Part shown: piece after piece, positions 34,442 to 57,679 of the stretch
Numbering within the stretch: position 1 is the first letter of the stretch
Layout of the letters: the number at the start of each line of letters is the position of its first letter
Assembly (NCBI GenBank): GCA_035638775.1
Contig: DASQZJ010000023.1
Location: 10,827-74,826, forward strand
Length of the DNA stretch: 64,000 nucleotides
DNA from: Gammaproteobacteria bacterium
GTDB lineage: Bacteria > Pseudomonadota > Gammaproteobacteria > UBA5335 > SLRW01
Reading direction: 5' to 3'
The notes under the pieces: generated by a model
Told to the model about the DNA's origin: nothing
The model's input: the letters and a program-made list of their open reading frames with translations, nothing else
Database searches by the model: none
Made by a program: the position numbers and the translations under genes

Positions 34442-35722
34442 ATGTTCGCTTTGAAGAAGATCTGCATGTACGCGGCGCTGGGGGTGGGCGTGGCATCACT
34501 GATGTCCGTGGCCTCGGCCAGGGAGCTTGCGGCCGGCACGGTGATCAACGCGTCGAACTTCGACCAGCTCAAGAACGACACCTTCGAGCAACACACCATC
34601 GCCAGCATGGTCCCGAGTCGGCTCGAGTGGCTGATCAAGAAGCACGGCCTGACGATCCGCCTGGCGCATTCCAAGCCGATCCACATGGATCCGGGATACA
34701 TCAAGCGTACGAAGGAGCACGCCGGCGAGGCGAAGATCAACCCGAAGACTCACGAGATGGAGAACTGGAGCGGCAGCGGCGCGCCCTTCCCGTACGACGA
34801 CATCTCGGCGAAGGACCCGCTCGCGGGCTGGAAGCTGATCTGGGACTTCTACGTCGAGCAGGTGGACGGCGACTACACGCATTTCCCGCGGTTTGCCTAC
34901 CTGCTGATCGACGGCAACAAGGGCATCGAGCGCACGCAGGTGTGGAGCTGGTACCGGGTCAAGATGGTCGGGCTGATCAGCGAGGACCACAAGCCGGTCC
35001 AGGGCGACGGCTCGATCCTGAACAAGACCCAGATCAGTGCCGTCTACCCGCAGGACATCCGCGGGCTGGGCACGCTGACCATCCGCTACATGGCGGACAA
35101 GGTGGACAACACCTGGGCGTACCTGCCGGCGGTCCGGCGCGTGCGGCGCCTGTCCGGCGGCGCCTGGATGGACCCGATCGGCGGCACCGACCAGTTGCAG
35201 GACGACATCAACATCTGGAACGCGCGCCCCAACTGGTACCCGCACATCAAGGTGCTGCGCAAGCAGTGGATGCTGGTGACCGCTCACTCCAAGTGGTCGT
35301 GGAACGAGAAGGGCGGTACCGACGCGCAGAAGTACCCCGAGGTCGATCTGCAGCACAAGCCGTACTGGAATCCCAAGACCGGCTGGGAGCCGCGCCAGGT
35401 CTACGTGGTCGAGGCCGATGCGCCGGACATCCACCCGTACTCCAAGAAGATCATGTACGTGGACGCCAAGTTCCCCTGGATCTGGCAGGGCGAGGCCTAC
35501 GACAAGAAGGGCAAGTTCTGGAAGTACATGTTCTGGCTGGCAATGGAGCACACCTGCCGCGGCAACGGCACCAAGGTGATCTGGCCGGCCCAGGGCGAGG
35601 TGCTGGACTACCAGCGCATGCACGGGACGGTGTTCGTCTCCAACAACAACTGGACCTGCAACCCGAAGGGGCTCAAGCCGAGCGACGTCTCGCTGGGCAG
35701 CCTGATGGCGGCCGGCAGGTAA
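34442..35722 (+). CDS. DUF1329-family periplasmic/outer-membrane-associated protein (LolA-like fold family)
   Basis: 426-aa ORF with a GAGGAGG RBS and signal peptide MFALKKICMYAALGVGVASLMSVASA. ..GAPFP.. ..WYRVK.. ..NTWAYLPAVRRVRRLS..DP..GTD...DD.. ..Y.K..MYVD is the DUF1329 pattern as I recall it. Confidence 0.85.
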   Translation: MFALKKICMYAALGVGVASLMSVASARELAAGTVINASNFDQLKNDTFEQHTIASMVPSRLEWLIKKHGLTIRLAHSKPIHMDPGYIKRTKEHAGEAKINPKTHEMENWSGSGAPFPYDDISAKDPLAGWKLIWDFYVEQVDGDYTHFPRFAYLLIDGNKGIERTQVWSWYRVKMVGLISEDHKPVQGDGSILNKTQISAVYPQDIRGLGTLTIRYMADKVDNTWAYLPAVRRVRRLSGGAWMDPIGGTDQLQDDINIWNARPNWYPHIKVLRKQWMLVTAHSKWSWNEKGGTDAQKYPEVDLQHKPYWNPKTGWEPRQVYVVEADAPDIHPYSKKIMYVDAKFPWIWQGEAYDKKGKFWKYMFWLAMEHTCRGNGTKVIWPAQGEVLDYQRMHGTVFVSNNNWTCNPKGLKPSDVSLGSLMAAGR

Positions 35723-35730
35723 CGGCCGCG

Positions 35731-35758
35731 CTCCCGGCCGGCTCCGGCCGGCCGGGAG
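35731..35758 (+). terminator. Intra-operon GC-rich hairpin after the DUF1329 gene (possible attenuator or partial terminator)
   Basis: CTCCCGGCCGG-ctccgg-CCGGCCGGGAG, a perfect 11-bp stem 9 nt after the stop. No U-tract. Confidence 0.4.
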
Positions 35759-35798: not shown

Positions 35799-36440
35799 AT
35801 GGATCTGACGCCCGGCGGTAGCGCCCTGCTGATCATCGACATGCAGAACGGCTTCCTGCATCCGCAGGGGTCCTGCGCGAGCATCGGGCTGCCCTGCGAC
35901 GCGCTGCGTGCGGCCGTGCCAGGCTGCCGGCAGCTGCTGGAGGCGGCCCGGCGCGAGCGCATGCCGGTGATCTTTACGCGTTACATGTACCGGCCCGACT
36001 ACAGCGACGGCGGGGTGGTGATCCGGGAGTTCTTCCCGGACCTGGCGACCTCGGGGGCGCTGCGTGCCGGCAGCTGGGATGCCGAGGTGGTCGACGAGCT
36101 CGCGCCCCGCGAGGGCGAGCTGGTGGTGGACAAGAACCGTCCCAGCGCGTTCTACGGCACACCGCTGGAGAGCTACCTGAACGGCCTGCATGCCGACAGC
36201 CTGATCGTGTGCGGCGTGACCACCAACGTGTGCGTCGAGACCACGGTGCGGGACGCGATGCAGCGGGACCTGAAGGTCTGGGTGGTGGGCGAGGCGACCG
36301 CGGAGTTCGACCGTGACCGGCACGAGGCGGCGCTCCACTCGATGGGCTGGATGTTCGGCCAGGTCGTGCGGCTCGATGCCGTGCTGAAGGAAATCCCGCG
36401 CCTGGCCGGGGAGCGCGAGCCGGCCGCGGCGGGCTCCTGA
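35799..36440 (+). CDS. Isochorismatase-family cysteine hydrolase
   Basis: 213-aa ORF. ..ALLIIDMQNGF.. ..K.R.SAFYGT.L...L.. ..LIVCGVTTNVCVETTVRDA.. carries the Asp-Lys-Cys triad pattern. Confidence 0.85.
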   Translation: MDLTPGGSALLIIDMQNGFLHPQGSCASIGLPCDALRAAVPGCRQLLEAARRERMPVIFTRYMYRPDYSDGGVVIREFFPDLATSGALRAGSWDAEVVDELAPREGELVVDKNRPSAFYGTPLESYLNGLHADSLIVCGVTTNVCVETTVRDAMQRDLKVWVVGEATAEFDRDRHEAALHSMGWMFGQVVRLDAVLKEIPRLAGEREPAAAGS

Positions 36441-36494
36441 AGGCGGCATCCGGCGATAGTGACACGCGGCCCGGGCGGCCGGCGGAGGTGAGCG

Positions 36495-37544
36495 ATGGCG
36501 GGGCATTTCGTGATCGACGGTGTGGTGCATCCCTACAACTTCAGCCGGGAGAACCTCCAGGGCCGGTTCGGCGAGTTGTTCAACGACACCATGTACAGCT
36601 ACTACCCGTACGTGAACCCGCCGGAGATCGCGTTCAGCCGCGAGCAGTGGGAGCGGGAGTGGCAGCCGGAGGAGTTCATCGAGACGATCCTGCTCGAGAG
36701 CCCCACCGACATGATCTGCGTCCATTCGCTGCCGATTTACGACGCCTACAGGGACGGCCTGGCGGCCGCCGACAAGTGCGCGCGGCTCAAGCGCGACTAT
36801 CCCGACCGCGTCCTGTGGTACGGCGGCGTCAATCTGTGCTGGCCGGAGCGGGCGCAGGAAGACCTGCAGCAGCAGATCGAGCAGGGCTGCGACGGCATCA
36901 AGCTGTACCCGGCCCGCTACGAGGAGGGGCGGACCCGGTTCTGGCGGCTCAATGACGAGGACCTCGCCTTCCCGCTGCTGGAAGAGGTGCGCCGGCACGG
37001 GATCCGGAACGTCGCGATCCACAAGGCGCTGCCGCTGGGGCCGGTGAGCACCGAGTCGATGCGCATCGACGACATCTCCGACGCGGCCAACGTGTTCCCG
37101 GAGATCAACTTCCAGATCGTCCACGCCGGCTTCATGTTCGTGGACGAGACCAAGTTCCTGATCGCCAACCATCCCAACGTGTACGCCACCATGGAGGCGT
37201 CGACCCTGTTCTGCATCATCAACCCGGCCGGGCTGCAGCAGATCCTGACCGAGTTCCTGCTCTACGGCGGGCCCGAGAAGATCATCTACTCCTCGGCGGC
37301 GGTCAACCCGCATCCGAGGATCGTCCTGGAGGCGTTCGAGAGCTTCCGGATGCCGCCGGATTCGCCGATCCAGCTGGACGAGGCGTTCCGCGAGGCATTT
37401 CTCGGCGGCAACCTGGCGCGGCTGCACGGCATCGACGTCGCCGAGCGCCGCAGGCGGCTGGCGGACGACCGCTTCGCCCGGCACGTCGCGGAGCACGGCT
37501 ACCGCCGTCCCTGGACCGCGGTGCACGGGGAGGCGGCGGCATGA
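36495..37544 (+). CDS. Amidohydrolase_2 (ACMSD/LigI/LigJ/LigW-type TIM-barrel) family protein, member A
   Basis: 349-aa ORF. N-terminal VIDGVVHPYNF takes the place of the usual ID-H-H motif. ..GIKLYP.. ..NVAIHKALP.. ..QIVHAGF.. ..YSSAAV.. follow the strand-end residues of the fold. Confidence 0.8.
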   Translation: MAGHFVIDGVVHPYNFSRENLQGRFGELFNDTMYSYYPYVNPPEIAFSREQWEREWQPEEFIETILLESPTDMICVHSLPIYDAYRDGLAAADKCARLKRDYPDRVLWYGGVNLCWPERAQEDLQQQIEQGCDGIKLYPARYEEGRTRFWRLNDEDLAFPLLEEVRRHGIRNVAIHKALPLGPVSTESMRIDDISDAANVFPEINFQIVHAGFMFVDETKFLIANHPNVYATMEASTLFCIINPAGLQQILTEFLLYGGPEKIIYSSAAVNPHPRIVLEAFESFRMPPDSPIQLDEAFREAFLGGNLARLHGIDVAERRRRLADDRFARHVAEHGYRRPWTAVHGEAAA

Positions 37545-37945
37545 GTACCGCGGACCGCGAGCTGGCGCAGGCGGTCCTGGAGGCTCTGGACGGGGTGCGG
37601 GACGCCTGCATGGTGGCCGCCGGACTGGATCTGAGCGTACGTGAGCTCGGGCTGGTGCGGGACGTCGAGTGCAGCGACGACGGCCAGGTTCGCATCCGCA
37701 TCACCTTCACCGAGCCGGGATGCCCGTTCACTCACCACATGCTCCACCACATCCACGAGGCGGTGGAGCGCGTTCCCGGCATCGCCGGCGTGCGGGTGCA
37801 GCCGGTGTGGGATCCGCCCTGGACCGAGGACTGGATGAGCGAGACGGCGCGCCGCCAGTTCCGGGCCGCGCGCCGGCGCATGGCCGGCGGCGCTACGCCA
37901 CTCCACCCGATGCGCCGCCGGCATTCCGCCGCCGGCAACGACTGA
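37541..37945 (+). CDS. DUF59 / MIP18-family (PaaD-like, Fe-S assembly-related) protein
   Basis: 134-aa ORF in ATGA overlap with the upstream gene. ..V.EALDGVRD....AGLDLSVRELGLVRDVE..DGQVRIRITFTEPGCP... is the classic DUF59 core. Confidence 0.75.
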   Translation: MSTADRELAQAVLEALDGVRDACMVAAGLDLSVRELGLVRDVECSDDGQVRIRITFTEPGCPFTHHMLHHIHEAVERVPGIAGVRVQPVWDPPWTEDWMSETARRQFRAARRRMAGGATPLHPMRRRHSAAGND

Positions 37946-37955
37946 GGAGGTGCCC

Positions 37956-38720
37956 ATGGCTGCCGCGAAAGGATCGGCGAAGCGTACGCGCGTCGAGGCG
38001 CGCAGCATGATGCCGTTGCACAGCCCCCCGTTCGGACCGCCGCCGTACCCGATGCTGGAGTGCCGGATGCTGATGGTGGAGCTGCGCGCGGACCCGGCCG
38101 AGATCCGGCGCATCACGCCGGAGCCGCTGGAGCCGGCGGACCGGGACCGGCTGTTTGCGTTCGTCGCGGACAACAGCCAGCTGTCCCACTCGCTGCGCTA
38201 CCACGAGGCCGCGATCCTGCAGCGCGTCCGTTACGGCGACCGGGAGGGCGTCACCACGCCCTACATCTGGACCTCGACCGACACGGCGATGCTGGCCGGG
38301 CGCGAGCTCTACGGCATGCCCAAGCTGATGTGCGACGACGGTGCCCTCGAGGTCGACGCCAACGAGGTGTACGGGCGCCTGGAAAAATACGGGCGGACCA
38401 TGATGGAGCTGTCCATCGTGATCGATCGCGCGGGCCGGATCGGCGATCTGCCGTTCGGCTCGGACTGGGTCTTCGTCCGTCACATCCCGACGCCCGATCC
38501 GCGCCGCCCGGCGCTGCGACAGCTGGTGTGGATCGGGCTCACGGACTTCGCGCTGCAGGAGTGCTGGCTCGGTCGCGGCTGGGCCGGGCTGGGTCATCCG
38601 GGCTCGTCGGGGCTGCACCGGCTGGGTGCCGCGGCGGCCGGCAGCGCCTGGTACGGACGCTTCTCCTGGATGCTCGGCGACGCCGAGATCCTGGAGGAGA
38701 CCGAGATCCCCGCGCGCTGA
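37956..38720 (+). CDS. Acetoacetate decarboxylase (ADC)-family protein
   Basis: ORF 37950..38720 (GTG). I prefer ATG 37956, 5 nt after GAGGAGG. ..MPLHSPPFGPPPYPM..C.ML.VELRADPAEIRRITPEPLEP.. ..YHEAAILQRVRY.. ..GRELYGMPK is the ADC-like beta-cone family pattern. Confidence 0.75.
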   Translation: MAAAKGSAKRTRVEARSMMPLHSPPFGPPPYPMLECRMLMVELRADPAEIRRITPEPLEPADRDRLFAFVADNSQLSHSLRYHEAAILQRVRYGDREGVTTPYIWTSTDTAMLAGRELYGMPKLMCDDGALEVDANEVYGRLEKYGRTMMELSIVIDRAGRIGDLPFGSDWVFVRHIPTPDPRRPALRQLVWIGLTDFALQECWLGRGWAGLGHPGSSGLHRLGAAAAGSAWYGRFSWMLGDAEILEETEIPAR

Positions 38721-38748
38721 ACGCGGCGGGCCGATACGGGAGGGAGAG

Positions 38749-39630
38749 GTGGCTTCATCACGGCGCGGCGAAGAGCGGCCCTGGAAGATCGACATCGTCT
38801 GCAACCCGTTCACGGAGCAGGAGATCCGTCTCGGTCAGACGGGGTTCGACCGGGACTTCATGGAGCAGGTCCGGATGCCGGAGGACATGCGAGCCGGCGT
38901 GTCGCTGGAGCGCTACATCGCGAAGATGGATCGCGCCGGCATCGAGCGTTCCCTGCTCATCGCCGTGCGGGCGGGCGACATCCGCATGCAGGGCTCGGCG
39001 GAGATTCCCTATGCCCAGGTGGCGCAATATTGCCGCGCGTTCCCCGACCGCTTCTCCGGCCTGGCCGGGGTGGACCCGTTCCGCGGAATGCGGGGCGTGG
39101 CGGAGCTGGAGGAGGCGGTGCGCGGGCACGGCTTCGTCGGCGCGCACCTGTACCCCCACTGGTTCGAGCTGCCCCCGGACCACGCCAAGTACTACCCGTA
39201 CTACGCCAAGTGCTGCGAGCTGGGCATCCCGATCATGATGCAGGTCGGGCAGAACCTGGTCTACAACCGCGCCCGGGCGCTGCCCAGCGTGGGCCGTCCG
39301 ATCTGCCTCGACCGGGTGGCGATCGATTTCCCGGAGCTGCGCCTGATCGGCATCCACATCGGCGTGCCCTGGACGGACGAGATGATCGCCATGGCCTGGA
39401 AGCACGAGAACGTCTTCATCGGGGCCGACGCCTACGCGCCCCGGTATTGGCCGCCGCAGCTCGTGCACTACCTCGACAGCTACGGCCGCGACAAGGTGAT
39501 GTTCGGCACCGACTGGCCCGTGATCGATCCCGAGCGGGCCATGCGCGAGATCGATGAGCTGGGGCTGCGCCCCGAGAGCCGGCGCAGCTTCATGCGGGAC
39601 AACGCCGTCCGGGTCTTCGGGCTGGCGTAG
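38749..39630 (+). CDS. Amidohydrolase_2 family protein, member B
   Basis: ORF 38626..39630 trimmed to an in-frame GTG at 38749 after GGGAGGGA. ..KIDIVCNPF.. replaces the ID-H-H motif. ..GAHLYPHW.. ..IMMQVG.. ..IGIHIGVPW.. ..VMFGTDWP.. are typical of the fold. Confidence 0.8.
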   Translation: MASSRRGEERPWKIDIVCNPFTEQEIRLGQTGFDRDFMEQVRMPEDMRAGVSLERYIAKMDRAGIERSLLIAVRAGDIRMQGSAEIPYAQVAQYCRAFPDRFSGLAGVDPFRGMRGVAELEEAVRGHGFVGAHLYPHWFELPPDHAKYYPYYAKCCELGIPIMMQVGQNLVYNRARALPSVGRPICLDRVAIDFPELRLIGIHIGVPWTDEMIAMAWKHENVFIGADAYAPRYWPPQLVHYLDSYGRDKVMFGTDWPVIDPERAMREIDELGLRPESRRSFMRDNAVRVFGLA

Positions 39631-39776
39631 TCCCCGGTTTCACCCGCCGGCAGGAGCCGACCGGATATGTCGATGTATACGTCAACTGCCTCTGGCGAAC
39701 GTGTCCCGTCCTCTCCCGGGACCGGGCGGCGCCTGCCGCCCACCGCTTCTGACGTATCCGGTATCCCGGGAACCCG

Positions 39777-39792
39777 GGGTGCGGGTCTTGTA
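39777..39792 (+). promoter_or_regulatory. Weak sigma-54-like element sharing the CTTGTAA -12 variant
   Basis: GGGTGCGGGTCTTGTAA. The GG and spacing are conserved, the -24 is degenerate, and the -12 is TTGT. It lies only about 25 nt before ATG 39816. Speculative. Confidence 0.25.
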
Positions 39793-39815
39793 ATCGAAGC
39801 CGGCGGAGCGCACCG

Positions 39816-41384
39816 ATGACCCGCCGGCGCGAATCCGGCCCCGCCCCGTCGCGGCCGCCCACCTACCGCCCCCTCACCATCTCCGGGGGCATCCGCGCCG
39901 CGGCCGGGCGTACGCCGGACAAGCCGGCACTCGGCATGGACGGCCGCTCGCTGTGCTACCGCGACCTGGTCGAACGTATCGACCGCGTGTCCAATGCGGC
40001 GCGGGCCGGGCTGGGCCTGGCCCGCGGGGAACGCGTGGCGCTGCTGGCGCCCAACTGCCCCGAGCTGGTGGAGCTGGTGTGCGGACTGTCCGCGGTCGGG
40101 ATCGCGGCGGTGATGGTCAATCCGCGGCTCACCGCGGCCGAGATCGCCTACATCTGCGCCGACTCGGGCGCACGCGCGATGCTGGTGCATCCCGAGCTCG
40201 AGGACCTGGCCCGGTCGGCCGACCTGCCCGGGATCGAGCAGATCATCGTGCTCGGGCCCGGCTACGAGGACTGGCTCGGCAGGGCCGCCGCCACCCCGCC
40301 CGGGGCCGCCGTGGAGGAGTGGGACGTGTTCGCCATGCACTACACGGCGGGCACCACGGGGGAGCCCAAGGGCGTGCTGCTGCCCCACCGCTCGCGCGCC
40401 CTCACCTTCTTCGGCATGGCCGCGGAGTACGGCTGCTACGGTCCCGCCGACCGCGCGCTGGCGATCGCGCCGATGTTCCACGGCGCGGGCTTCGCCTTCG
40501 CCGTGGCCCCCGTGTTCTTCGGCGGCTACTGCGAGATCCTCCCGCGCTTCGACCCGGAGCGCGCCCTGGGATTGATGGCCGACTGCGCCGTCACCAACAC
40601 CTTCATGGTGCCGACCCATTTCCAGGCACTGTTCGCGCTGGGCGCACAGGTGCTGCAGCGCCAGCGCACGCCGGCCCTGCGGACCATCGTCTCGAACGCG
40701 GCACCGCTGGCCCAGGCGATGAAGGAGCGCATCGTGGCGTACTTCGGCGAGGGGATCCTGCACGAGACCTACGGCTCCACCGAGGCCGGCATCGTGTGCA
40801 ACCTGCGACCGGAGGACCAGCTGCGCAAGCAGCAGTGCGTGGGCCTGCCGTTCCCCTGCACCGAGGTGCGCCTGCTGGGCGACGACGGCCGGGAGGTGGC
40901 GCCGGGCGAGGTGGGCGAGCTGCACAGCCTCTCGCCGTACCTGTTCAACGGCTACTGGGGCCGGCCGGAGGCGACCGCGCAAGCGCTGCGCGAGGGCTGG
41001 CTGACGGTCGGAGACCTGGCCCGGCGGGACGAGGAAGGCTACCTGTACATCGTCGACCGCAAGAAGGACATGATCATCTCCGGCGGGGTGAACGTCTACC
41101 CGCGGGAGATCGAGGAGCACCTGCTGCGCCATCCGGGGGTCGCGGAAGCGGCGGTCATCGGCGTACCCGACGAGTACTGGGGCGAGGCGGTGCGGGCCTG
41201 CGTGGTGCGCCGGCCCGGTGCGGACGTGACCGCCGGGCAGCTCATGGCGCACTGCGAGGGGCACCTCGCACGCTACAAGCTGCCGCGGGTGATCGCGTTC
41301 GTGGACGAACTGCCCCGCAACGCCGCCGGAAAGGTGCTCAAGCGGCAGCTGCGGGACACCTTCGAAAGGGGCACGGGAGCATGA
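39816..41384 (+). CDS. AMP-dependent acyl-CoA synthetase/ligase
   Basis: 522-aa ORF. AMP-binding motifs YTAGTTGEPKGV, ..ETYGSTE.., ..GDLARRDEEGYLYIVDRKKDMIISGGVNVYPREIE.., ..GK..K. Confidence 0.9.
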   Translation: MTRRRESGPAPSRPPTYRPLTISGGIRAAAGRTPDKPALGMDGRSLCYRDLVERIDRVSNAARAGLGLARGERVALLAPNCPELVELVCGLSAVGIAAVMVNPRLTAAEIAYICADSGARAMLVHPELEDLARSADLPGIEQIIVLGPGYEDWLGRAAATPPGAAVEEWDVFAMHYTAGTTGEPKGVLLPHRSRALTFFGMAAEYGCYGPADRALAIAPMFHGAGFAFAVAPVFFGGYCEILPRFDPERALGLMADCAVTNTFMVPTHFQALFALGAQVLQRQRTPALRTIVSNAAPLAQAMKERIVAYFGEGILHETYGSTEAGIVCNLRPEDQLRKQQCVGLPFPCTEVRLLGDDGREVAPGEVGELHSLSPYLFNGYWGRPEATAQALREGWLTVGDLARRDEEGYLYIVDRKKDMIISGGVNVYPREIEEHLLRHPGVAEAAVIGVPDEYWGEAVRACVVRRPGADVTAGQLMAHCEGHLARYKLPRVIAFVDELPRNAAGKVLKRQLRDTFERGTGA

Positions 41385-42328
41385 CCATGCGCATTGCCGC
41401 GGCACACGTGGCGCCGGTGCTGCTGGACCGGCAGGCCTGCATCGGCAAGGCCTGTGACTGGATCGAGCGCGCGGGCCGGGAGGGCGTCGGTCTGCTGGTT
41501 TTTCCGGAGGTGTTCGTGCCCGGCTTCCCGTACTGGATCAACTGTTACCCGCCGCTGGCACAGGGGGAGCTGAACCTGCGCTACATGCGCGCATCGGTGG
41601 CGGTTCCGGGACCGGAGATCGATGCCGTCCGCGACGCCGCGCGCGCCGCCGGCGTGACCGTGGTGCTGGGCGTGAGCGAGCGCGACGGCGGCACCTGCTA
41701 CAACACCCAGGTGTTCGTCGCCGCCGACGGCACCCTGCTGGGCAAGCATCGCAAGCTGCAGCCGACCTACGCCGAGCGCTACATCTGGGGCCAGGGAGAC
41801 GGCTCCACGCTGCGCGTGTGGGACACGCCCGCCGGGCGCGTCGGCGGGCTGGCCTGCTGGGAGCACACCATGAACCTGGCGCGGCAGGCGCTGATCGACC
41901 AGGGGCTGCAGATCCATGCCGGCTCCTGGCCGGCGCTCGGCACCCTGGCCGGCTTCGACGCCATGTTCGACGACCAGGTCGAGGCCATGAGCCGCGCCCA
42001 TGCGATCACGGGCCAGTGTTTCGTGGTGGTGGCCCAGGATACCGTTACCCGGCAGATGCTGGACGTCATGAGCGACGCCCTGGGGCCGCAGGAATTGCTG
42101 GCCCCCGGGGGCGGCTGGTCGGCGGTGATCCATCCCTGGGGTACGTACCTCGCCGGTCCTCATCGCGGCGGCGACGAAGCGCTGGTCCTGGCGGACGTCG
42201 ATCCGGGCGACATCGACGTGGTCAAGGGCTTCGTCGACACCGCCGGTCACTATGCGCGGCCGGAGGTGCTGCGCCTGGTGCTCGACGACCGTGCCCGCAC
42301 CCCGCTGCAACGGTGCGGGCGCGACTGA
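41381..42328 (+). CDS. Nitrilase-superfamily C-N hydrolase (branch-1 nitrilase-like)
   Basis: ORF 39953..42328 trimmed to ATG 41381, in ATGA overlap with the ligase stop. Glu-Lys-Cys triad contexts LLVFPEVFVPGFPYW, GKHRKLQPT, GGLACWEH. Confidence 0.85.
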   Translation: MTMRIAAAHVAPVLLDRQACIGKACDWIERAGREGVGLLVFPEVFVPGFPYWINCYPPLAQGELNLRYMRASVAVPGPEIDAVRDAARAAGVTVVLGVSERDGGTCYNTQVFVAADGTLLGKHRKLQPTYAERYIWGQGDGSTLRVWDTPAGRVGGLACWEHTMNLARQALIDQGLQIHAGSWPALGTLAGFDAMFDDQVEAMSRAHAITGQCFVVVAQDTVTRQMLDVMSDALGPQELLAPGGGWSAVIHPWGTYLAGPHRGGDEALVLADVDPGDIDVVKGFVDTAGHYARPEVLRLVLDDRARTPLQRCGRD

Positions 42329-50082: not shown

Positions 50083-50106
50083 GCCCGGCCGGGTCCGTCG
50101 GCCAAG

Positions 50107-50435: not shown

Positions 50436-51635
50436 ATGAAAGCGCTGGAAGGAATCAAGGTCATCGACCTCACCCACATGCTCTCCGGCCCCTACGGCAC
50501 GATGCTGCTGGCCGACCTCGGCGCGACCACGATCAAGGTCGAGCCGCCCGGCCGCGGCGAGGGGACCCGCAAGCTGCTGGCCGACAACCCCCGCTACTCG
50601 GTAAAGGGCATGGGGGCCTACTTCTTCACGCTCAACCGCAACAAGCGCAGCGTCTGCATCGACCTCAAGTCGGAGCAGGGCAAGGCCGTCTTCCTGGACC
50701 TGGTGCGCGCCTGCGACGTGGTGTTCGACAACTTCAGCGCCGGCGTTCCGGCCCGCCTGGGGATCGATCACGAGGCGCTCGCCGCCGTGAACCCGCGGAT
50801 CATCACCTGCAGCGTCACCGGCTTCGGCGAGACCGGCCCCGACAACCTCCGGCCAGCCTTCGACCAGGTGATCCAGGGCATGGGCGGGGGCATGTCGATC
50901 ACCGGCTATCCGGACGGCGGCCCGCTGCGCGCCGGCATCCCCATCGGCGACCTCGCGGGCGGCATGTTCGGCGCCATGGGCGTGCTTTCCGCGCTGGTGG
51001 CGCGCGAGAAGACCGGCAAGGGCCAGCACCTGGACGTGTCGATGCTGGACTGCCAGATCTCCCTGCTGAACTACATGGCGACGATGTTCTTCCTCTCGGG
51101 CGAAAACCCTCACCCGCTGGGTAACGGGCACTTTGTCCATGTGCCGTACAACACCTTCGCCACCAGCGACGGCTGGATCATCATCGCGGTGATCTTCGAC
51201 AGCTTCTGGCTGAACCTGCTGAAGGTCATCGACGTGCCCGAGCTCCGGATCGAGAAGTACCACACCCAGCCGGGCCGCTTCGAGGATCGGGAGTTCATCA
51301 ACGCCCGCCTCGGCGAGGTTCTGCGCACCAACACCACCGAGCACTGGCTGCGCGAGCTGCGCGCCGAGCGCATCCCCTGCGCCCCGGTGAACAACTTCGA
51401 GCAGGCCCTCAACGACAGCCAGGTCCGCTACCGGAACATGGTGGTGAAGGTCCGGCACCCGGAGAACGGCGAAGTCGAGATGCCCGGCAACCCGATCAAG
51501 ATGTCGGAGACCTGCGAGGACAGCTACGCCCCGCCCCCGCTGCTGGGACAGGACACGGACGAGGTCCTGCGCGAGCTGCTGGGCATGGATGCCGAGCGCC
51601 TCCGCGCGCTGCGCGAGGCGGGAGTCATAGGTTGA
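50436..51635 (+). CDS. Family III CoA-transferase (CaiB/BaiF/Frc family)
   Basis: ORF 50223..51635 trimmed to ATG 50436. MKALEGIKVIDLTHMLSGPYGTMLLADLGA..IKVE.P..G.. ..NRNKRS..IDLK.. ..DV...NF.. is the hallmark N-terminus. Confidence 0.9.
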   Translation: MKALEGIKVIDLTHMLSGPYGTMLLADLGATTIKVEPPGRGEGTRKLLADNPRYSVKGMGAYFFTLNRNKRSVCIDLKSEQGKAVFLDLVRACDVVFDNFSAGVPARLGIDHEALAAVNPRIITCSVTGFGETGPDNLRPAFDQVIQGMGGGMSITGYPDGGPLRAGIPIGDLAGGMFGAMGVLSALVAREKTGKGQHLDVSMLDCQISLLNYMATMFFLSGENPHPLGNGHFVHVPYNTFATSDGWIIIAVIFDSFWLNLLKVIDVPELRIEKYHTQPGRFEDREFINARLGEVLRTNTTEHWLRELRAERIPCAPVNNFEQALNDSQVRYRNMVVKVRHPENGEVEMPGNPIKMSETCEDSYAPPPLLGQDTDEVLRELLGMDAERLRALREAGVIG

Positions 51636-51641
51636 ATCGTC

Positions 51642-52577
51642 ATGGCTGAACAGGAATTCGTCAGCGTCAACGAGGTCGGGCTGCGCGACGGGCTGCAGAA
51701 CCAGTCGGTGCAGGTCCCCATCGAGGGCAAGCTGCGCCTGGCACGGGCCCTTGCCGACGCCGGCTTGCGCAGCATGGAGGCGACCAGCTTCGTGTCGCCG
51801 CGGGCGGTGCCGCAGATGGCGGATGCCGCCGAGCTGTTCCCGGCGCTGCCGCGCCCCGATGAAATCGACTACTCCGCCCTGATCCCCAACAGGAAGGGCT
51901 ACGAGCGTGCCCTGGAGGCCGGTGTTCGCTCGGTCGCGGTGGTGCTGGCGGCGACCGACACCATGAACCGCAAGAACATCAACATGTCGCTCGCCGAGAC
52001 TCGCCGGGTCTGCGCCGACGTGGTCGCGCGCGCGAAGCGTGACGGCGTTCACAGCCGCGCCTACGTGGCTGTGGCATTTGAATGTCCCTACGAGGGACGC
52101 GTGTCCGCGCAGCGCACAACGGAGCTCACGGAAGAGATGTTCGGGGCCGGTGCCGACGAGGTCATCATCGCCGACACCATCGGGGCGGCGAACCCCTCCG
52201 CATCGTTCGACCGCTTCAGCGGGCTCGCGGAACGCTTCGACCCGGAGCGCCTGTGCGCCCACTTCCACGACACCCGCGCGCTGGCCCTGGCCAACGCCTG
52301 GGCCGCCCTGCACGCGGGGATCCGCCGTTTCGACAGCTCCATCGGCGGCCTGGGGGGCTGCCCGTTCGCGCCGGGTGCCGCGGGCAACGTGGCGACCGAG
52401 GACCTGGTGCTGATGCTCGGGATGTGCGGCTTCCGCACCGGCATCGATGTTCCCGGTCTGCGTCGCGCCGTCGAGGTCGCCTCGGAGCTGGTCGGCCGCG
52501 AGCTCGGTGGACGCATGACGGCGTGGCTGCGCTCGCAGGACCGCCGGGACGGCTCCGGCAAGGGAGATGCGGGGTAA
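51642..52577 (+). CDS. Hydroxymethylglutaryl-CoA lyase-like (HMGL/DRE-TIM) acyl-CoA lyase
   Basis: 311-aa ORF. ..VNEVGLRDGLQN.. ..E.TSFVSP..VPQMAD.. ..ADTIG.. ..HFHDTRA.ALAN..AAL..G...FDSS.GGLGGCPFAPGA.GN..TEDLV. Confidence 0.85.
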   Translation: MAEQEFVSVNEVGLRDGLQNQSVQVPIEGKLRLARALADAGLRSMEATSFVSPRAVPQMADAAELFPALPRPDEIDYSALIPNRKGYERALEAGVRSVAVVLAATDTMNRKNINMSLAETRRVCADVVARAKRDGVHSRAYVAVAFECPYEGRVSAQRTTELTEEMFGAGADEVIIADTIGAANPSASFDRFSGLAERFDPERLCAHFHDTRALALANAWAALHAGIRRFDSSIGGLGGCPFAPGAAGNVATEDLVLMLGMCGFRTGIDVPGLRRAVEVASELVGRELGGRMTAWLRSQDRRDGSGKGDAG

Positions 52578-53659
52578 TGGCATTGCGCTGGGAGGAAACG
52601 TCCATGCGCGGGGGCGGTCCGGCCGAAGGCGGGGTCGATCGGCATGCGGAGCGTCGCGGACTCGCGGCCCGGCTCCGGGCCGGCGTGCTCGGCCTGATCC
52701 CGTGGGCGGTGATCGCGCTGCTGCTGATCGCGGCGTTCACGGTGCGTCCGGGTGCCGTGGGCAAGGCCGTGCAGCCGCCGCCGATCTCGCGCCAGGACGA
52801 CTTCTACGGCATCGCCCATCCAGCACCGCAGGTGCTCTGGCTCGCCGGCAACCTCGGCAAGATCGTGCGCAGCGACGACGGCGGACGCTCCTGGACCGTC
52901 CAGGAGACCCCGACCCGGCGCAACCTCCAGGCCATCGCCGCCTGGAACGCGAACGACGCCGTCGCCGTGGGCGACGGGGCGACCGTGCTGGTGACCGACG
53001 ACGGCGGGCGGAGCTGGAAGCAGGTTGCGGCCCCGCACTCCAAGGTCGCGGACAAGTTCATCCGCGTACGGATCATGCCGGACGGCAGCGCCTGGATCGT
53101 GGGCGTCATGGGCGCGGTCCTCGAGTCCACCGACCACGGCCGCACCTGGACCCGCAAGGCACCGGTCGAGGACGTCGCGCGCAACGACATCGCCGGCGTC
53201 GGGGACAGTCGCTGGGTGGTGGGTGAGTTCGGCAGCATCCTGGTCTCGCGCGATGGCGGTGCCACCTGGTCGAAGGACACGGCGCCGGTGCAGAACACGC
53301 TGAACGGCGTTCGTTTCCGCGACGCCGAGCACGGCGTCGCGGTGGGCCTGCAGGGCACGATCCTGGTGACGGACGACGGCGGGCGCAGCTGGAAGCAGGT
53401 GACGGGGGTGACCGGTGAGCACCTGTTCGCGGTGGCCTGGGACGGCCACCGGTGGATGGCCGCGGGCGCCGACGGGGTGGTGCTCTCGGCGCCGCCGCCG
53501 GCCCGCGACTGGAAAGCCTCACGCGTCGCGCCGCGGGACTTCGCCTGGCATACCGACCTGGTTCCGGCCGCCGGCGGCGGCTGGTACCTGGTCGGCGCCG
53601 ACGTCGGCGCACTGGGCCAGGGCGGCTGGCGGGTGTTCAACGGAGGGAAGAGCTCGTGA
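52577..53659 (+). CDS. Membrane-anchored BNR/Ycf48-like beta-propeller protein
   Basis: ORF 52082..53659 trimmed. ATG 52577 overlaps the upstream TAA by 1 nt. An alternative ATG at 52604 has a GGAGGA RBS. One TM (GVLGLIPWAVIALLLIAAF), then reiterated S/T-D-D/H-G-G-R/A-S/T-W motifs (SDDGGRSW, TDDGGRSW x2, TDHGRTW, RDGGATW). Confidence 0.8.
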   Translation: MALRWEETSMRGGGPAEGGVDRHAERRGLAARLRAGVLGLIPWAVIALLLIAAFTVRPGAVGKAVQPPPISRQDDFYGIAHPAPQVLWLAGNLGKIVRSDDGGRSWTVQETPTRRNLQAIAAWNANDAVAVGDGATVLVTDDGGRSWKQVAAPHSKVADKFIRVRIMPDGSAWIVGVMGAVLESTDHGRTWTRKAPVEDVARNDIAGVGDSRWVVGEFGSILVSRDGGATWSKDTAPVQNTLNGVRFRDAEHGVAVGLQGTILVTDDGGRSWKQVTGVTGEHLFAVAWDGHRWMAAGADGVVLSAPPPARDWKASRVAPRDFAWHTDLVPAAGGGWYLVGADVGALGQGGWRVFNGGKSS

Positions 53660-56034
53660 CCCGGTTCATCCGCAGCTTCGCCGACTTCTGCATCCGCCGG
53701 CGGGTGCCCATCGTGGTGCTGCTCGGCACGCTCACCATCGTGTTCGGCGTGCTGGCGACGCGGATCCAGGTCAAGACCGTGTTCGAGGACATGCTTCCGC
53801 TGTCCCATCCCTGGATCAAGACCCACGAGAAGTACAAGGACACCTTCGGCAGCTCGAACATGGTCACCATCATGGTGACCGCCCGCCATGGCGACATCTT
53901 CCAGCGGCCGGTGCTCACCAGGATCCGGAAGATCACCCGGGAGCTCCGCCAGGTCGAGGCGGTCAACCAGTTCCAGATCATTTCGCTGGCCTCGAAAAAG
54001 CTCAAGACCGTCAAGGCGACCAGCTGGGGCATCGACACCGTGCCCCTGATGTGGCCGGACACCCCGAAGACGCAGAAGGGGATCGACAAGCTGCGCCAGG
54101 AGGTGCTGCGCAACCCGCTGGTCTACGGCTCCTACGTCTCGCCCGACCTGAAGTCGGCCCTGATCACGGTGGACTTCATCGACCGGCTGGTCGACTACCC
54201 GGAGATCTTCAGCCAGATCAACCACATCATCGACGGCGTGCGCGGCAACGACGTGCGCATCAACGTCATCGGCCAGCCGATGCTCTACGGCTGGGTGGGC
54301 AAGTACCTGCCGCAGACCATGATGATCACCCTGCTGACCATCGGCATGCTCAGCCTGACGCTGTTCATACTCGCGCGGACCTGGCGCGGCACGCTGCTGC
54401 CGCTGCTGGCCGGGCTGACCAGCGCCTGCTGGTCGCTGGGCATCGCCCACCTGCTGGGGATCAACTTCGATCCACTGGTCGTGGTGGTCGCGTTCCTGAT
54501 CACTGCGCGGTCGATCTCCCATTCCGTGCAGCTGATCACCCGCTACGAGGACCTGCGTACGGAGGAACGCGGCATCCGCCTGCGCGACGCCGCGCGGGTC
54601 AGCCTGGCCGAGCTGTTCCGGCCCGGCATGCTGGGGGTCATCGCCGACGCGGGCGCGATCCTGGTGGTGCTGCTGACGCCCATCCCGCTGCTGCAGAAGG
54701 TCTCGATCATCGGCGCCATCTGGGTATCCACCATCGCCGTGTCTGCCGTGATCATGACGCCGGTGCTGCTGTCGTTCCTGAAGCGGCCCGGGGGCGCGGT
54801 GCACCCGATCAACCTGGACGGGCCGATGCATCGCTTCCTTCAGCTGTGCGTGCGCATCGCGGTGACCCGGGCGCGCTACGTCGCGATCGCGGTGGCCGTG
54901 CTGCTGTTCGCGGGCTCCGGCCTGCTGGCGATGAACCTGCAGGTGGGCGATGCACGGGCCGGCTCGCCGATCCTCTGGCCCGGGCACCAGTACAACCGCA
55001 GCGCAACCGCGATCAACCACAAGTTCGCGGGCACCGATCGGCTGTTCGTGGTGTTCCACGGCAAGGAAAAGGACGCCATGAAGAAGCCCGACGTGCTGCG
55101 CACGATGCAGGGCTTCCAGCGCTACATGGAGGCGCAGCCGGAGGTGGGCGGAACGATGTCGCTGGTGGACGTGGTCAGCTCGATCAACCGCGTGCTGCAC
55201 GGCGGCAATCCGCGTTACCAGGAGCTTGGCGACAGCGCCACCCAGAACGGGCAGTTCCTGTACATGTTCGTGTCCGGCTCCGATCCCGGGGACCTGAACC
55301 GCTATGCCGATCCGGACTTCCGCAACGGCGCGGTCACGATGTTCTTCCACGACCACACGGGCGTGACGATCCGCACCGCCTTCCGGCGGATCCAGGAATT
55401 CATGCAGGGCCACCCCATGAAAGACGCCAGCTACCAGCTGGCCGGCGGCCTGGTGGGCGTGCTCGCCGCGGTCAACGACGTGCTGCTGAAGGGCCAGATC
55501 GAGGCGATCGCGCTCGGGCTGCTGGTCGTGGTGCTGTGCGCCACCGCGGTGTACCGATCCAGCGTGGCCGGGATGTTCTTCATGGTGCCGGTGCTGTTGT
55601 CCAACACCGTCACCTTCGCGTGCATGAGCCTCATGCACGTGGGCCTGAACATCAACACGGTCCCGGTGGTGGCTCTCGGCATCGGCCTGGGGGTCGATTA
55701 CTCGTTCTACATCATCGACGGGATCAAGGAAGAGCTGGCGCGCCACGGAAACGTCGTGGAGGCCCTGACCAGCTCCCTGCACAGCGCCGGACGCGGCGTG
55801 CTCATCACGGGCGCGACCCTGGTGGTGAGCGTGATCCTGTGGATGTTTTCCTCGCTTCGCTTCCAGGCGGAGATGGGGCTGCTGATCGCGCTGTGGCTGG
55901 CCGTCTCGGCCAGCAGCGCCCTGTTCCTCATGCCGGCGCTGGCCTACGTGTTCCGGCCCCGGTTCATTTTCGGCGACGAACGCGGCGGGGCGTGGCGCTC
56001 CGGGAGCGTTCGAGCAGTGGCGGAGTCCTCGTGA
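53656..56034 (+). CDS. RND-superfamily (MMPL/HpnN-like, 12-TM, two-periplasmic-loop) transporter
   Basis: ORF 53452..56034 trimmed to GTG 53656 (GGAGGGA RBS, GTGA overlap with the upstream stop). 792 aa. Two repeats of 1 TM + large loop + 5 TM. ..GINFDPLVVVVAFLITARSISHSVQL.. and ..GLNINTVPVVALGIGLGVDYSFY.. are the TM4/TM10-like segments. Confidence 0.85.
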   Translation: MTRFIRSFADFCIRRRVPIVVLLGTLTIVFGVLATRIQVKTVFEDMLPLSHPWIKTHEKYKDTFGSSNMVTIMVTARHGDIFQRPVLTRIRKITRELRQVEAVNQFQIISLASKKLKTVKATSWGIDTVPLMWPDTPKTQKGIDKLRQEVLRNPLVYGSYVSPDLKSALITVDFIDRLVDYPEIFSQINHIIDGVRGNDVRINVIGQPMLYGWVGKYLPQTMMITLLTIGMLSLTLFILARTWRGTLLPLLAGLTSACWSLGIAHLLGINFDPLVVVVAFLITARSISHSVQLITRYEDLRTEERGIRLRDAARVSLAELFRPGMLGVIADAGAILVVLLTPIPLLQKVSIIGAIWVSTIAVSAVIMTPVLLSFLKRPGGAVHPINLDGPMHRFLQLCVRIAVTRARYVAIAVAVLLFAGSGLLAMNLQVGDARAGSPILWPGHQYNRSATAINHKFAGTDRLFVVFHGKEKDAMKKPDVLRTMQGFQRYMEAQPEVGGTMSLVDVVSSINRVLHGGNPRYQELGDSATQNGQFLYMFVSGSDPGDLNRYADPDFRNGAVTMFFHDHTGVTIRTAFRRIQEFMQGHPMKDASYQLAGGLVGVLAAVNDVLLKGQIEAIALGLLVVVLCATAVYRSSVAGMFFMVPVLLSNTVTFACMSLMHVGLNINTVPVVALGIGLGVDYSFYIIDGIKEELARHGNVVEALTSSLHSAGRGVLITGATLVVSVILWMFSSLRFQAEMGLLIALWLAVSASSALFLMPALAYVFRPRFIFGDERGGAWRSGSVRAVAESS

Positions 56035-56122
56035 GGGGCTCATCGCAGGCCGGTTACGGTCGCCGCTCCCCGGCAGCGTACGCAAGGCCTGGCTCAATTA
56101 GAGAGGGGATGGAGGACGACAA

Positions 56123-57679
56123 ATGTTCACAAGAGCAAGGGCGATAGGGAAGCTTGCGGCCCTGGCGGTCGCGGCGCTCGGCCTGGTGCCGCTGGCCGCG
56201 TCCGCCGGGCAGCTGGAATGGCAGGGGAGCGACTGGAGCCTGACGGTGTCCGGTTATGCCCGCCAGTACCTTTCGATGAACCTGCAGAACCCGCCGGAGA
56301 CCAAGGCGAACGACCGCTACAATCTGTCCATGGTGCGCACCGTACTGGAGCCGTACTTCGACGGCCATGTCAGCGCCGTGCACTACCACCTGGTGGGCCG
56401 GATCGCGCGGGAGCCGACCACCACCTACCTGCAGCGGCTCGAGACACCGTCGGACCTCGTCAGCGGCGGCGCCGGAACGGGGGGCGCCAACGGCGGCAGC
56501 AACCTGGTGCACGACCAGTACGACGTCAACGACATCCGCGAGGCCTGGCTCGGCTTCCACGTCGGCCAGTGGACCGAGGTGCGGCTGGGCAAGCAGCAGA
56601 TCGTGTTCGGGCACACGGATTTCTTCCACGCCCTGGACATGGTCGAGGGCTACGACTTCACCTGGCGATCCTTCCTGGTGCCCGAGAACGAGGACGTGCG
56701 CAAGCCGCTCAACCTCGTGAACGTGATGGTCAATACCGCCCAGGGCGGCCAGTTCCAGCTGGTGGTGATCCCGGGCGATGCCAACCGCAAGCGGGATATC
56801 GGCAACACCTATGACCTGTTCGGCGGCCGCTGGGCCAACCAGCCGAACAAGGGCATCGATTTCCTGCAGGTGATGGACTACAACTACGACCACCCCGAGG
56901 GCAAGGCCAGCGACACCACCGGGGCCCTGCGCTGGAGCGGCATCGCGGGCGACATCAGCTACTCCGTCGACTACCTGCACGTGTACAACCCGGACCCGGT
57001 GGTGAACTCCGTCTTCGCACCCTGGAAGGCGGCCCCCAGGGGCCTGCTGGGCGACTTCATCTACCCGGTGGTCGACACGGTGGGCGGCAGCATGAGCGCC
57101 TACTCGTCGTGGGCCGACGCGGTGTTCAGCACCGAGGTCGCGTACACCCTGGACAAGCCCTACAACGTGGGCACCAACGGCGCTACCTGCGGCTCGCCGT
57201 TCCCGGGGTTCTGCGGCGTCAAGCAGAAGAACACGGTCAACTTCATGGTGCGCATGGACAAGAACGTGTCCTGGACGCACACGCTGTTGGGGGCCGCCCG
57301 CGGCTCGTTCATGTCCTTCCAGTTCTTCGACACGTGGATCCCGAACTTCAAGAAGTCGGATGACATCGTCGACCTGGCCGGGTACGCGGCGCCGAAGCAC
57401 GAGCACAACATGATCGCGACGGGCATCCTCGGGCTGAGCTACATGAACGCCCGGATCAATCCGCAGCTGGCGGGTGGCTACGACCTCACCAACGGCGGCG
57501 GCTTCCTCATCCCGAGCGTGCAGTTCGTCCGCGGTGACCACTGGCGCCTGAAAGTGGAGGCGGACCTGTTCTACCCGCACGGCAGCAACGAGTTCGGGGG
57601 CAACTCCTCGGACACGCACCTGTTCGGGTACTTCGCCAACAACGACCAGCTCGCGCTGCGGCTCAGCTACCTGTTCTGA
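56123..57679 (+). CDS. DUF1302-family outer-membrane beta-barrel protein
   Basis: 518-aa ORF with a GGAGGACGAC RBS. Signal peptide MFTRARAIGKLAALAVAALGLVPLAASA. ..VSGYARQY.. ..IREAWLGF....W..VRLGKQQIVFG.TDFF.. ..C-terminal ..LALRLSYLF (aromatic terminus). Confidence 0.85.
   Translation: MFTRARAIGKLAALAVAALGLVPLAASAGQLEWQGSDWSLTVSGYARQYLSMNLQNPPETKANDRYNLSMVRTVLEPYFDGHVSAVHYHLVGRIAREPTTTYLQRLETPSDLVSGGAGTGGANGGSNLVHDQYDVNDIREAWLGFHVGQWTEVRLGKQQIVFGHTDFFHALDMVEGYDFTWRSFLVPENEDVRKPLNLVNVMVNTAQGGQFQLVVIPGDANRKRDIGNTYDLFGGRWANQPNKGIDFLQVMDYNYDHPEGKASDTTGALRWSGIAGDISYSVDYLHVYNPDPVVNSVFAPWKAAPRGLLGDFIYPVVDTVGGSMSAYSSWADAVFSTEVAYTLDKPYNVGTNGATCGSPFPGFCGVKQKNTVNFMVRMDKNVSWTHTLLGAARGSFMSFQFFDTWIPNFKKSDDIVDLAGYAAPKHEHNMIATGILGLSYMNARINPQLAGGYDLTNGGGFLIPSVQFVRGDHWRLKVEADLFYPHGSNEFGGNSSDTHLFGYFANNDQLALRLSYLF

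Follow-up and report, generated by a model that had tools for sequence, protein, structure and literature searches.

A split AmeABCD-type envelope system in a conserved, putatively sigma-54-controlled catabolic island of Gammaproteobacteria

Quartets of envelope proteins made up of a DUF1302 outer-membrane barrel, a DUF1329 protein, a Ycf48-like BNR propeller and an RND transporter are widespread in Proteobacteria, including Pseudomonas aeruginosa, and are found near oil, terpene, aromatic and steroid pathways. Such a quartet is present in a stretch of 64,000 nucleotides (hereafter, the window) from a gammaproteobacterial contig (DASQZJ010000023.1, positions 10,827 to 74,826, assembly GCA_035638775.1), and it was studied together with the genes that surround it. 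The closest described system is AmeABCD from Castellaniella defragrans 65Phen, in which AmeA is the DUF1302 protein, AmeB the DUF1329 protein, AmeC a COG4447 protein and AmeD an HAE3 RND pump (PMC6394551). The ame genes sit in a monoterpene island, where alpha-phellandrene induces them. The deletion mutant grew more poorly on non-functionalised monoterpenes and accumulated more Nile Red, and it grew normally on oxygenated monoterpenoids and was rescued by a co-substrate (PMC6394551). The quartet of the window is of the AmeABCD type, and its kind, its splitting and its residence in a catabolic island have all been published already. The most useful new point is that it belongs to a conserved island family, linked to sigma-54 and a PrpR-type activator, that comprises compact, split and pump-less envelope sets.

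Other members of this group of systems have been described from several angles. Price et al. reported that the genes of the quartet are cofit (i.e. their mutants have fitness phenotypes in common) in Shewanella, Kangiella and Pseudomonas, that they are split 2+2 in P. stutzeri, that DUF1329 genes occur in phenanthrene, p-cresol and steroid clusters and that DUF1329 paralogues are common in genomes; they also found pleiotropic phenotypes and proposed the export of a cell-wall component (10.1101/072470). In P. putida, PP_0765/0766 and PP_2018/2019 are required on Tween 20 and butyl stearate, and Thompson et al. raised an esterase role for DUF1302/DUF1329 (10.1101/2020.07.04.188060). AlphaFold work led to the proposal that DUF1329 binds the DUF1302 barrel or the BNR+RND pair (PMC10866462, PMC13499233); an 18-strand barrel and an interface predicted template modelling score (ipTM) of 0.84 for DUF1302-DUF1329 were reported (PMC13499233), and the authors of Foldy use the term "substrate transport system" (PMC10866462). 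DUF1302 and DUF1329 were detected in the outer-membrane (nanopod) vesicles of Delftia (PMC3110197), and a related cluster is highly expressed in the benzene-degrading Desulfobacterota ORM2a (PMC13101534). Placement in catabolic islands is therefore on record for monoterpenes, phenanthrene, p-cresol, steroids and benzene. A first-pass annotation of the window, made from the sequence alone, had considered the function of the quartet as not established, a statement that is outdated in view of the published AmeABCD deletion phenotypes, cofitness data and AlphaFold models.

Compared by published description, AmeABCD and the window share the same four families (with a putative HAE3 assignment for the window RND protein) and, in both cases, the genes lie inside a catabolic island, which serves a hydrophobic substrate in the case of AmeABCD. 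The co-induction of AmeABCD with its pathway finds its match in the promoters of the window, which would place the quartet and the enzymes under common control. The gene order is different: AmeABCD forms one DUF1302-DUF1329-BNR-RND cassette, whereas the window has BNR-RND-DUF1302 with DUF1329 16.9 kb upstream, so that the composition of the Ame system is found in the window but the ameA-B-C-D order of Puentes-Cala & Harder is not. In addition, the DUF1302 protein of the window represents a shorter subfamily (518 amino acids, compared with 605 for AmeA), its regulation appears to involve sigma-54 and a PrpR-type activator, unlike that of AmeABCD, and its enzyme set differs from the monoterpene set of the Ame island. 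The quartets of P. putida (PP_0765/PP_0766 and PP_2018/PP_2019) and P. stutzeri (Psest_1122-1123 and Psest_1923-1924) are also split and cofit, and AlphaFold suggests that their DUF1329 touches both the barrel and BNR-RND. Yet they are divided 2+2 (DUF1302+DUF1329 versus BNR+RND) between distant loci and have a LuxR-type regulator, whereas the window is divided 1+3 within one island and, apparently, one sigma-54 regulon. HpnN, MmpL3 and BstA are the closest solved or curated relatives of the window RND protein. The similarity is weak, and they would share with it 12 transmembrane helices, two periplasmic domains and conserved intramembrane Asp/Tyr residues, but none of them is known to partner DUF1302, DUF1329 or BNR proteins. 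Finally, the "nanopod" cluster of ORM2a and the DUF1302/DUF1329 proteins of Delftia Cs1-4 also resemble the window. The ORM2a cluster codes for DUF1329, for proteins of porin-like and YCF48-related type and for an MMPL transporter, all highly expressed during hydrocarbon degradation, but it has further genes besides these (a universal stress protein), its description mentions no sigma-54 context, and its protein is only a distant relative of the Delftia DUF1329 (21% identity) (PMC13101534).

Since the base composition of the window is about 70% G+C, its genes were called by the frame-specific G+C content of third codon positions (GC3) instead of by the length of open reading frames. GC3 backs the reading frames of all four envelope genes, and every gene from 34.4 kb onwards lies on the + strand. 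The four families proposed by the first-pass annotation were all matched by Pfam: a DUF1329 periplasmic LolA-like protein (34442..35722, +; PF07044, E = 2.4e-55, plus LolA_like), a Ycf48-like BNR beta-propeller (52577..53659, +; PSII_BNR, E = 4.3e-22, 79 bits against a cut-off of 27), an HAE3/MMPL-type RND inner-membrane transporter (53656..56034, +; MMPL, E = 3.3e-24, above the cut-off) and a DUF1302 outer-membrane beta-barrel with a Sec signal peptide (56123..57679, +; PF06980, E = 8.8e-9). The physical split of the quartet also stands as described, with 16.85 kb and 16 genes between the DUF1329 and BNR genes.

All the window proteins were mapped onto 14 related loci (given below by L numbers), and this comparison of gene neighbourhoods revealed one conserved island family with three architectures. 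Variant I comprises this window, L009 and L004/L012 (a single contig); in it, DUF1329 heads an operon that runs from an isochorismatase to a nitrilase, and a second block contains the genes for a CoA-transferase, an HMG-CoA-lyase-family enzyme (HMGL), BNR, RND, DUF1302, an isochorismatase, hydantoinase A and hydantoinase B. Variant II was found in Algiphilus sp., Salinisphaera sp. PC39 and a metagenome-assembled genome (MAG) of Spiribacter salinus (L005/L006, L007/L008, L010, L011). Here, a PrpR-like activator is divergent from a CoA-transferase-HMGL-DUF1302 unit that is convergent with the DUF1329-headed operon, and BNR and RND are absent from the island. Variant III (L015-L017, three Porticoccaceae/gammaproteobacterial MAGs) was found by scanning a genome collection with the RND protein, a search that returned 4 loci. 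Its RND protein is 63% identical to that of the window. The activator gene points away from a compact BNR-RND-DUF1302-DUF1329 cassette, after which come the genes for the CoA-transferase, HMGL and hydantoinase A. For some of these island versions (Salinisphaera sp. PC39, Algiphilus), the source seems to be a cultured strain. The compact order BNR-RND-DUF1302-DUF1329 is not confined to the island and recurs in L013 and Cupriavidus necator (L014). Because this order is found in variant III, L013 and Cupriavidus necator, the 1+3 split of the window reads as a rearranged derivative of an ancestral compact cassette. This split is not peculiar to the window; it is conserved on at least three independent contigs and constitutes one of the three architectures of the family. 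From locus to locus, the four envelope proteins have diverged in step with one another and more rapidly than the enzymes: between L009 and the window, the envelope proteins are 64-75% identical (BNR 64%, RND 73%, DUF1302 75%) and the enzymes 83-96% (CoA-transferase 90%, hydantoinase A 92%, hydantoinase B 96%). This parallel divergence and the lack of a second DUF1302 or DUF1329 copy in the 64-kb window argue that the four envelope proteins are cognate partners.

The regulatory features of the window give good support to the sigma-54 control that the first-pass annotation had proposed. A PrpR-type sigma-54 activator with PrpR_N, PAS, AAA+ and HTH_8 domains is encoded divergently from the DUF1329 operon (31713..33872, -) and scores 567 bits against the NCBIfam PrpR model TIGR02329 (cut-off 499). 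Its orthologues (50-65% identity) adjoin envelope or CoA-transferase genes in all the island variants; the activator gene lies beside the first promoter (P1) in the window and beside the equivalent of the fourth (P4) in variants II and III. The exact sigma-54 consensus TGGCAC-N5-TTGC occurs twice in the 64 kb, at 34094 and 50312, in both cases on the + strand, in an intergenic region and ahead of + genes. When one mismatch is allowed, 11 sites are observed compared with 4.4 expected, and none of 100 shuffles reaches 11. The window thereby displays -24 GG/-12 GC promoters together with a nearby cognate enhancer-binding protein. P1 (TGGCACGGGGGTTGC, 34094..34108, +) is the exact site ahead of DUF1329, which is indeed the first gene after it, and P4 (TGGCACAGCGCTTGC, 50312..50326, +) is the other exact site. 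The enzyme genes between them had been treated as a single 17-kb block bordered by two promoters. The enzymes are there, but the promoter count has to be revised: two sigma-54-like sites with one mismatch each lie within the block, P2 (TGGCACGGTTCTTGT, 42442..42456, +), which is intergenic and 62 nt before the FAD_binding_4 gene, and P3 (TGGCACGGAACTTGT, 45130..45144, +), also intergenic and 60 nt before the next gene. They occupy the only other sizeable intergenic gaps of the enzyme block and have the extended sequence CGTGGCACGG..CTTGTAA in common. Their -12 element is TTGT, with GT and not GC, and they are therefore weaker promoter candidates; a canonical sigma-54 site precedes the FAD_binding_4 orthologue in L004. 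An intrinsic terminator (GGCGCCCCC-loop-GGGGGCGC plus a T-run, about 50106..50130, +; fold z-score -2.8) follows the SDR gene and closes the P3 unit. Given P2 and P3 within the enzyme block and this terminator, the region is better viewed as a series of four tandem sigma-54 units than as two.

Sigma-54 promoters were found at equivalent positions in 10 related loci, although these relatives are only about 50% identical: before the DUF1329 orthologues of L004, L005, L007, L010 and L011, before the CoA-transferase gene of L009, L010, L011 and L012, and before the compact cassette of L015-L017. Since the promoters are kept while the surrounding sequences are otherwise unalignable, this conservation amounts to a phylogenetic footprint. 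Candidate upstream activator sites lie 126 bp upstream of P1 (GTAACAGGTATGTAGCA, 33968..33984, +) and 147 bp upstream of P4 (GTAACGCGGGTGTGTCA, 50165..50181, +). Their common pattern GTAACR-N4-TGTRKCA, which was defined post hoc, occurs in the window only at 33968 and 50165 and never in shuffled sequences, and motifs related to it precede the equivalent promoters of relatives; repeats of the GTAAC/GAAAC type lie some 130-150 bp ahead of the promoters. The motif came only from the cross-species comparison; a search for 9-mers common to the four promoter-upstream regions of the window gave nothing convincing. Taken together, the conserved promoters, the shared upstream motif and the single PrpR-type activator make a good inferential case for the co-regulation of DUF1329 and BNR-RND-DUF1302; the "apparent" of the first-pass annotation remains the right word for a conclusion drawn from sequence.

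With regard to the individual proteins, the BNR propeller matches the Ycf48 structures 5oj5 and 2xbg in the PDB (E 1e-18 to 1e-21) and contains five canonical Asp-boxes (amino acids 99, 140, 184, 224 and 265), as predicted. The N-terminal membrane anchor that had also been predicted corresponds to a hydrophobic segment (amino acids 31-63) preceded by a basic one, which could be an uncleaved anchor or a cleavable signal peptide. The likeness to Ycf48 would concern fold and family only: the protein is not classed as the photosystem II assembly factor itself, as it scores 79 bits against a cut-off of 326 in the corresponding NCBIfam equivalog model and its context is a catabolic island. The RND protein has about 12 hydrophobic segments, compatible with around 12 transmembrane helices. 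Its best NCBIfam model is HAE3 (TIGR00921), at 146 bits and below the cut-off of 352, and its best PDB match is the HAE3 pump HpnN (6wu0), a weak similarity (E = 6e-11) that covers the C-terminal bundle only. In RND pumps in general, conserved intramembrane residues go with a proton relay. The residues D272, R285, H289, D331 and the D681-Y682 pair of the window protein are intramembrane and invariant in eight orthologues; these invariant Asp, Arg, His and Asp-Tyr residues are as expected of a working proton relay, which is thus putatively present.

The DUF1329 protein starts with a Sec signal peptide (...SVASA) and lacks a lipobox. AlphaFold2 (AF2) models of DUF1329 and DUF1302 were built from 42-sequence alignments. 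The DUF1329 model has a predicted local distance difference test score (pLDDT) of 88.5, and its C-terminal ~290 amino acids resemble LolA3 of P. gingivalis (9tp6), 3bk5 and 4z48 with template modelling (TM) scores of 0.76-0.85; 4z48 is itself a DUF1329-family structure. An extra N-terminal domain falls outside the region covered by these three structures. The leader between P1 and the DUF1329 start (34110-34441) is about 348 nt long, compared with about 180-245 nt in relatives. A riboswitch or other leader RNA was considered there and dropped: the 348-nt leader does not fold better than its shuffles (z -0.9) and no RNA family was matched by Rfam between 33800 and 58000 at E <= 1. The DUF1302 assignment is based on a modest Pfam score (35 bits, cut-off 23), with an alignment that spans the whole 541-position model. 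Its AF2 model is a large beta-barrel (pLDDT 87.8); among solved structures, it comes closest to 16-18-strand porins, AlgE and OccAB1 (TM 0.45-0.6). A sequence search of the PDB with DUF1302 gave no matches at E <= 1 and, to our knowledge, no DUF1302 structure has been solved.

The BNR, RND and DUF1302 genes had been described as the translationally coupled tail of the operon driven by P4. The coupling holds for the first part of this set, since a TAATG overlap (52575-52579) couples the BNR gene to the upstream HMGL gene and a GTGA overlap (53656-53659) joins the BNR and RND genes, but DUF1302 starts 88 nt after the RND stop and is therefore translationally uncoupled. As for the tail, five co-directional genes follow DUF1302 (isochorismatase, hydantoinase A, hydantoinase B, RidA and molybdopterin oxidoreductase, according to Pfam), which speaks against it, and a 12-bp GC stem-loop without a T-run (57698..57725, +) directly 3' of the DUF1302 stop partly speaks for it. 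A strong hairpin is found directly 3' of DUF1302 in all three variant I loci (L009 ~11549-11592; L012 ~11607-11642); the sequences are unrelated, so that in the window stem-loop the position is conserved and the sequence is not. Because this position is kept and DUF1302 is the final gene of its operon in variant II, the hairpin probably marks a transcript boundary or stabilises the mRNA. Between DUF1302 and the downstream genes, the searches for sigma-54 and sigma-70 consensus sites gave no match. A sigma-70 promoter scan from 49 to 64 kb was also empty, and therefore lends no support to an independent promoter for DUF1302 or the genes that follow it.

The enzymes of the P1 unit (35799..42328, +; Pfam, NCBIfam) are, in order, an isochorismatase-type amidase, an Amidohydro_2 protein, a DUF59 protein, an acetoacetate-decarboxylase-like (ADC-like) protein, a second Amidohydro_2 protein, an acyl-CoA ligase and a Nit6803-like nitrilase; in Spiribacter, Algiphilus and Salinisphaera, DUF1329 precedes an identically ordered series. 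The next genes were identified with Pfam. They encode an FAD_binding_4 oxidoreductase and an alpha/beta hydrolase (42504..45028, +), then a 118-amino-acid protein without a family, a methyltransferase, a SnoaL_2 protein, an OYE/Pyr_redox_2 reductase and an SDR (45190..50082, +), then a family III CoA-transferase and the HMGL (50436..52577, +). The latter reaches 343 bits in the NCBIfam HMG-CoA lyase subfamily model (cut-off 246), and the CoA-transferase/HMGL pair adjoins DUF1302 or the cassette in every island variant. The genes downstream of DUF1302 (57750..64000, +; Pfam, NCBIfam) encode an isochorismatase, caprolactamase-like hydantoinases A and B, RidA and a molybdopterin oxidoreductase that extends past the window edge. 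The two isochorismatases (35799-36440 and 57750-58364) are paralogues with 36% identity and lie directly 3' of DUF1329 and DUF1302, respectively.

The envelope system is best explained as part of a catabolic island of about 37 kb. This island probably starts near 27 kb, since genes for an aconitase-family protein and a second OYE also flank the island in Salinisphaera (L011). In the window, these genes encode an aconitase-family large subunit just upstream of the activator (27309-28775, +) and a second OYE/Pyr_redox_2 reductase (29247-31562, -) that is 38% identical to the OYE at 47255-49315. Further upstream, outside the island, lie genes for a LigB-LigA fusion (a ring-cleavage dioxygenase of the gallate/protocatechuate type, 11328-12725, -), a GCV_T-family folate-dependent protein that is possibly an aromatic O-demethylase (13084-14679, +), an AtuA-family protein (20806-22677, -) and a 5-formyl-tetrahydrofolate cyclo-ligase (24266-25264, -), which hint at methoxylated-aromatic or terpenoid catabolism nearby. 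A GAF-GGDEF-EAL cyclic-di-GMP protein (8736-11279, +) has no apparent link to the island.

The classes of enzymes in the island include two isochorismatase-type amidases, a Nit6803-like nitrilase, a caprolactamase-like pair of ATP-dependent hydrolases, two OYE-type ene-reductases, the upstream aconitase-like pair, a mesaconate/glutarate-type CoA-transferase and the HMG-CoA lyase. One may speculate that the substrate is an amide, lactam, imide or nitrile compound that is funnelled to a branched C5/C6 dicarboxyl-CoA. Nevertheless, among 20 proteins compared with NCBIfam, only the HMG-CoA lyase and PrpR models were matched above their curated cut-offs, and the caprolactamase, biuret amidohydrolase, Nit6803 nitrilase and mycofactocin-OYE matches were all well under the equivalog thresholds. 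Because only these two models pass, the sequence names no substrate and the "unusually direct handle" on it that the enzymes were thought to offer is a weak one. The first-pass annotation was thus accurate with minor corrections: composition and regulation were right, novelty and substrate tractability overstated.

The reading that we favor, with a probability of roughly 50%, is that of a substrate-induced trans-envelope conduit for a hydrophobic or amphiphilic compound, driven outward by the RND pump and serving tolerance or homeostasis. According to it, the four genes would encode one tetrapartite envelope system of the AmeABCD type: an HAE3 RND pump of the inner membrane that is powered by protons, a Ycf48-like propeller, tethered to the membrane, as its periplasmic partner, a soluble LolA-like DUF1329 protein as the carrier across the periplasm and a DUF1302 outer-membrane barrel of about 18 strands where the route would end. 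DUF1329 would have been relocated to the head of the first enzyme operon while BNR-RND-DUF1302 remained behind the CoA-transferase/HMGL pair, and a single PrpR-type activator would turn on the whole island through the four tandem sigma-54 promoters, so that conduit and enzymes would be made together when the substrate appears. DUF1329 would then ferry the compound, docking by turns on the barrel and on BNR-RND; the pump would use the proton gradient to extract the excess from the inner membrane and load it outward, and the membrane load would be kept below toxicity during catabolism. The barrel/carrier pair alone would allow a passive flux across the outer membrane. The outward direction is favored because the HAE3/MmpL pumps that have been characterised (HpnN, MmpL3) take lipids out of the inner membrane towards the outside and because the Ame phenotypes are those of tolerance.

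Several points weigh against this reading. P. putida requires the quartet on Tween 20 and butyl stearate, on which its mutants fail to grow, and this can be read as uptake (10.1101/2020.07.04.188060). The Algiphilus, Salinisphaera and Spiribacter islands retain DUF1302 and DUF1329, that is, the barrel and the carrier only; since variant II islands have neither BNR nor RND, the pathway-specific part may be the outer-membrane pair, and this would suit uptake more than energised efflux. Moreover, the upstream motif GTAACR-N4-TGTRKCA was derived after the sequences had been seen and is a lead rather than a proof, and the amidases, the nitrilase and the lactamase-like enzymes give no obvious pointer to a very hydrophobic compound. 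Uptake is accordingly the main rival explanation and has real support from variant II: DUF1302 would admit the substrate, DUF1329 would ferry it and BNR-RND would receive it at the inner membrane, in order to feed the enzymes and not to protect the cell. The variant II islands and the P. putida mutants aside, uptake would be congruent with the fact that DUF1329 heads the induced enzyme operon in both variant I and variant II, and Algiphilus, Salinisphaera and Spiribacter are absent from the named BNR matches, which is suggestive only, as 8000 candidates were scored and most matches are nameless. It is also congruent with the wording of the Foldy authors (PMC10866462) and with the work of Shetty et al., who, as related in PMC13101534, found phenanthrene growth to be impaired by the deletion of a Delftia DUF1329 gene. 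However, a hydrophobic compound enters the inner membrane without energy. We know of no bacterial RND pump that imports its substrate, and those of the HAE3/MmpL type that are characterised act outward. Furthermore, the Ame mutant grows on oxygenated monoterpenoids, is rescued by a co-substrate and accumulates more dye, not less (PMC6394551). On balance, uptake is a serious possibility but a doubtful one.

Two other explanations appear weaker. The quartet could be devoted to envelope housekeeping, exporting an endogenous lipid or cell-wall component or promoting vesicles, and so remodelling the surface without ever carrying the substrate. HpnN and MmpL3, the closest solved relatives of the pump, do export endogenous lipids, and both the pleiotropic phenotypes and cell-wall export proposal of Price et al. 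(10.1101/072470) and the DUF1302/DUF1329 of the Delftia nanopod vesicles (PMC3110197) point the same way; yet the genes are embedded in substrate-specific islands, with common sigma-54 promoters across three architectures, and an exporter of this sort would not be expected to accompany one pathway or to drop its pump in some versions, all of which makes housekeeping unlikely. The second explanation is that the association is a coincidence, DUF1329 serving a partner elsewhere and BNR-RND-DUF1302 working without it, or else that DUF1302 and DUF1329 are esterases. The 17 kb between the genes, their different transcription units and the frequency of DUF1329 paralogues (10.1101/072470) would allow for the former and the role floated by Thompson et al. 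(10.1101/2020.07.04.188060) for the latter. Nevertheless, DUF1329 and DUF1302 are each present in a single copy in the window, their divergence matches across loci and they are adjacent in variant III under the same type of regulator, which renders coincidence very improbable; the esterase role was rejected on the predicted folds, since the models show a barrel like that of porins and a carrier resembling LolA, neither of which is a hydrolase fold.

DUF1302 and DUF1329 are kept in every version of the island, including those devoid of the pump. A modular system can thus be tentatively envisaged, although we would not rate its probability highly: DUF1302 and DUF1329 would form a self-sufficient, pathway-specific uptake module, BNR-RND would be joined to it optionally, as an energised unit by which the flux is reversed or buffered, and the enzyme set would be a new pathway for a lipophilic amide, lactam or imide. 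If this were true, the island in cultured Algiphilus or Salinisphaera would settle the role of DUF1302/DUF1329 and the direction of transport, and the amidases, the lactamase-like ATP-dependent hydrolase, the ene-reductases and the HMG-CoA lyase would define a new catabolic pathway. The window alone leaves the general picture of these quartets unchanged. The three architectures under one sigma-54/PrpR-type switch, by contrast, provide a clean comparative and genetic system, and the island family could help to identify the inducer, which would lead to the substrate, to separate the uptake components from those of tolerance and to fish out the ligand of DUF1329.

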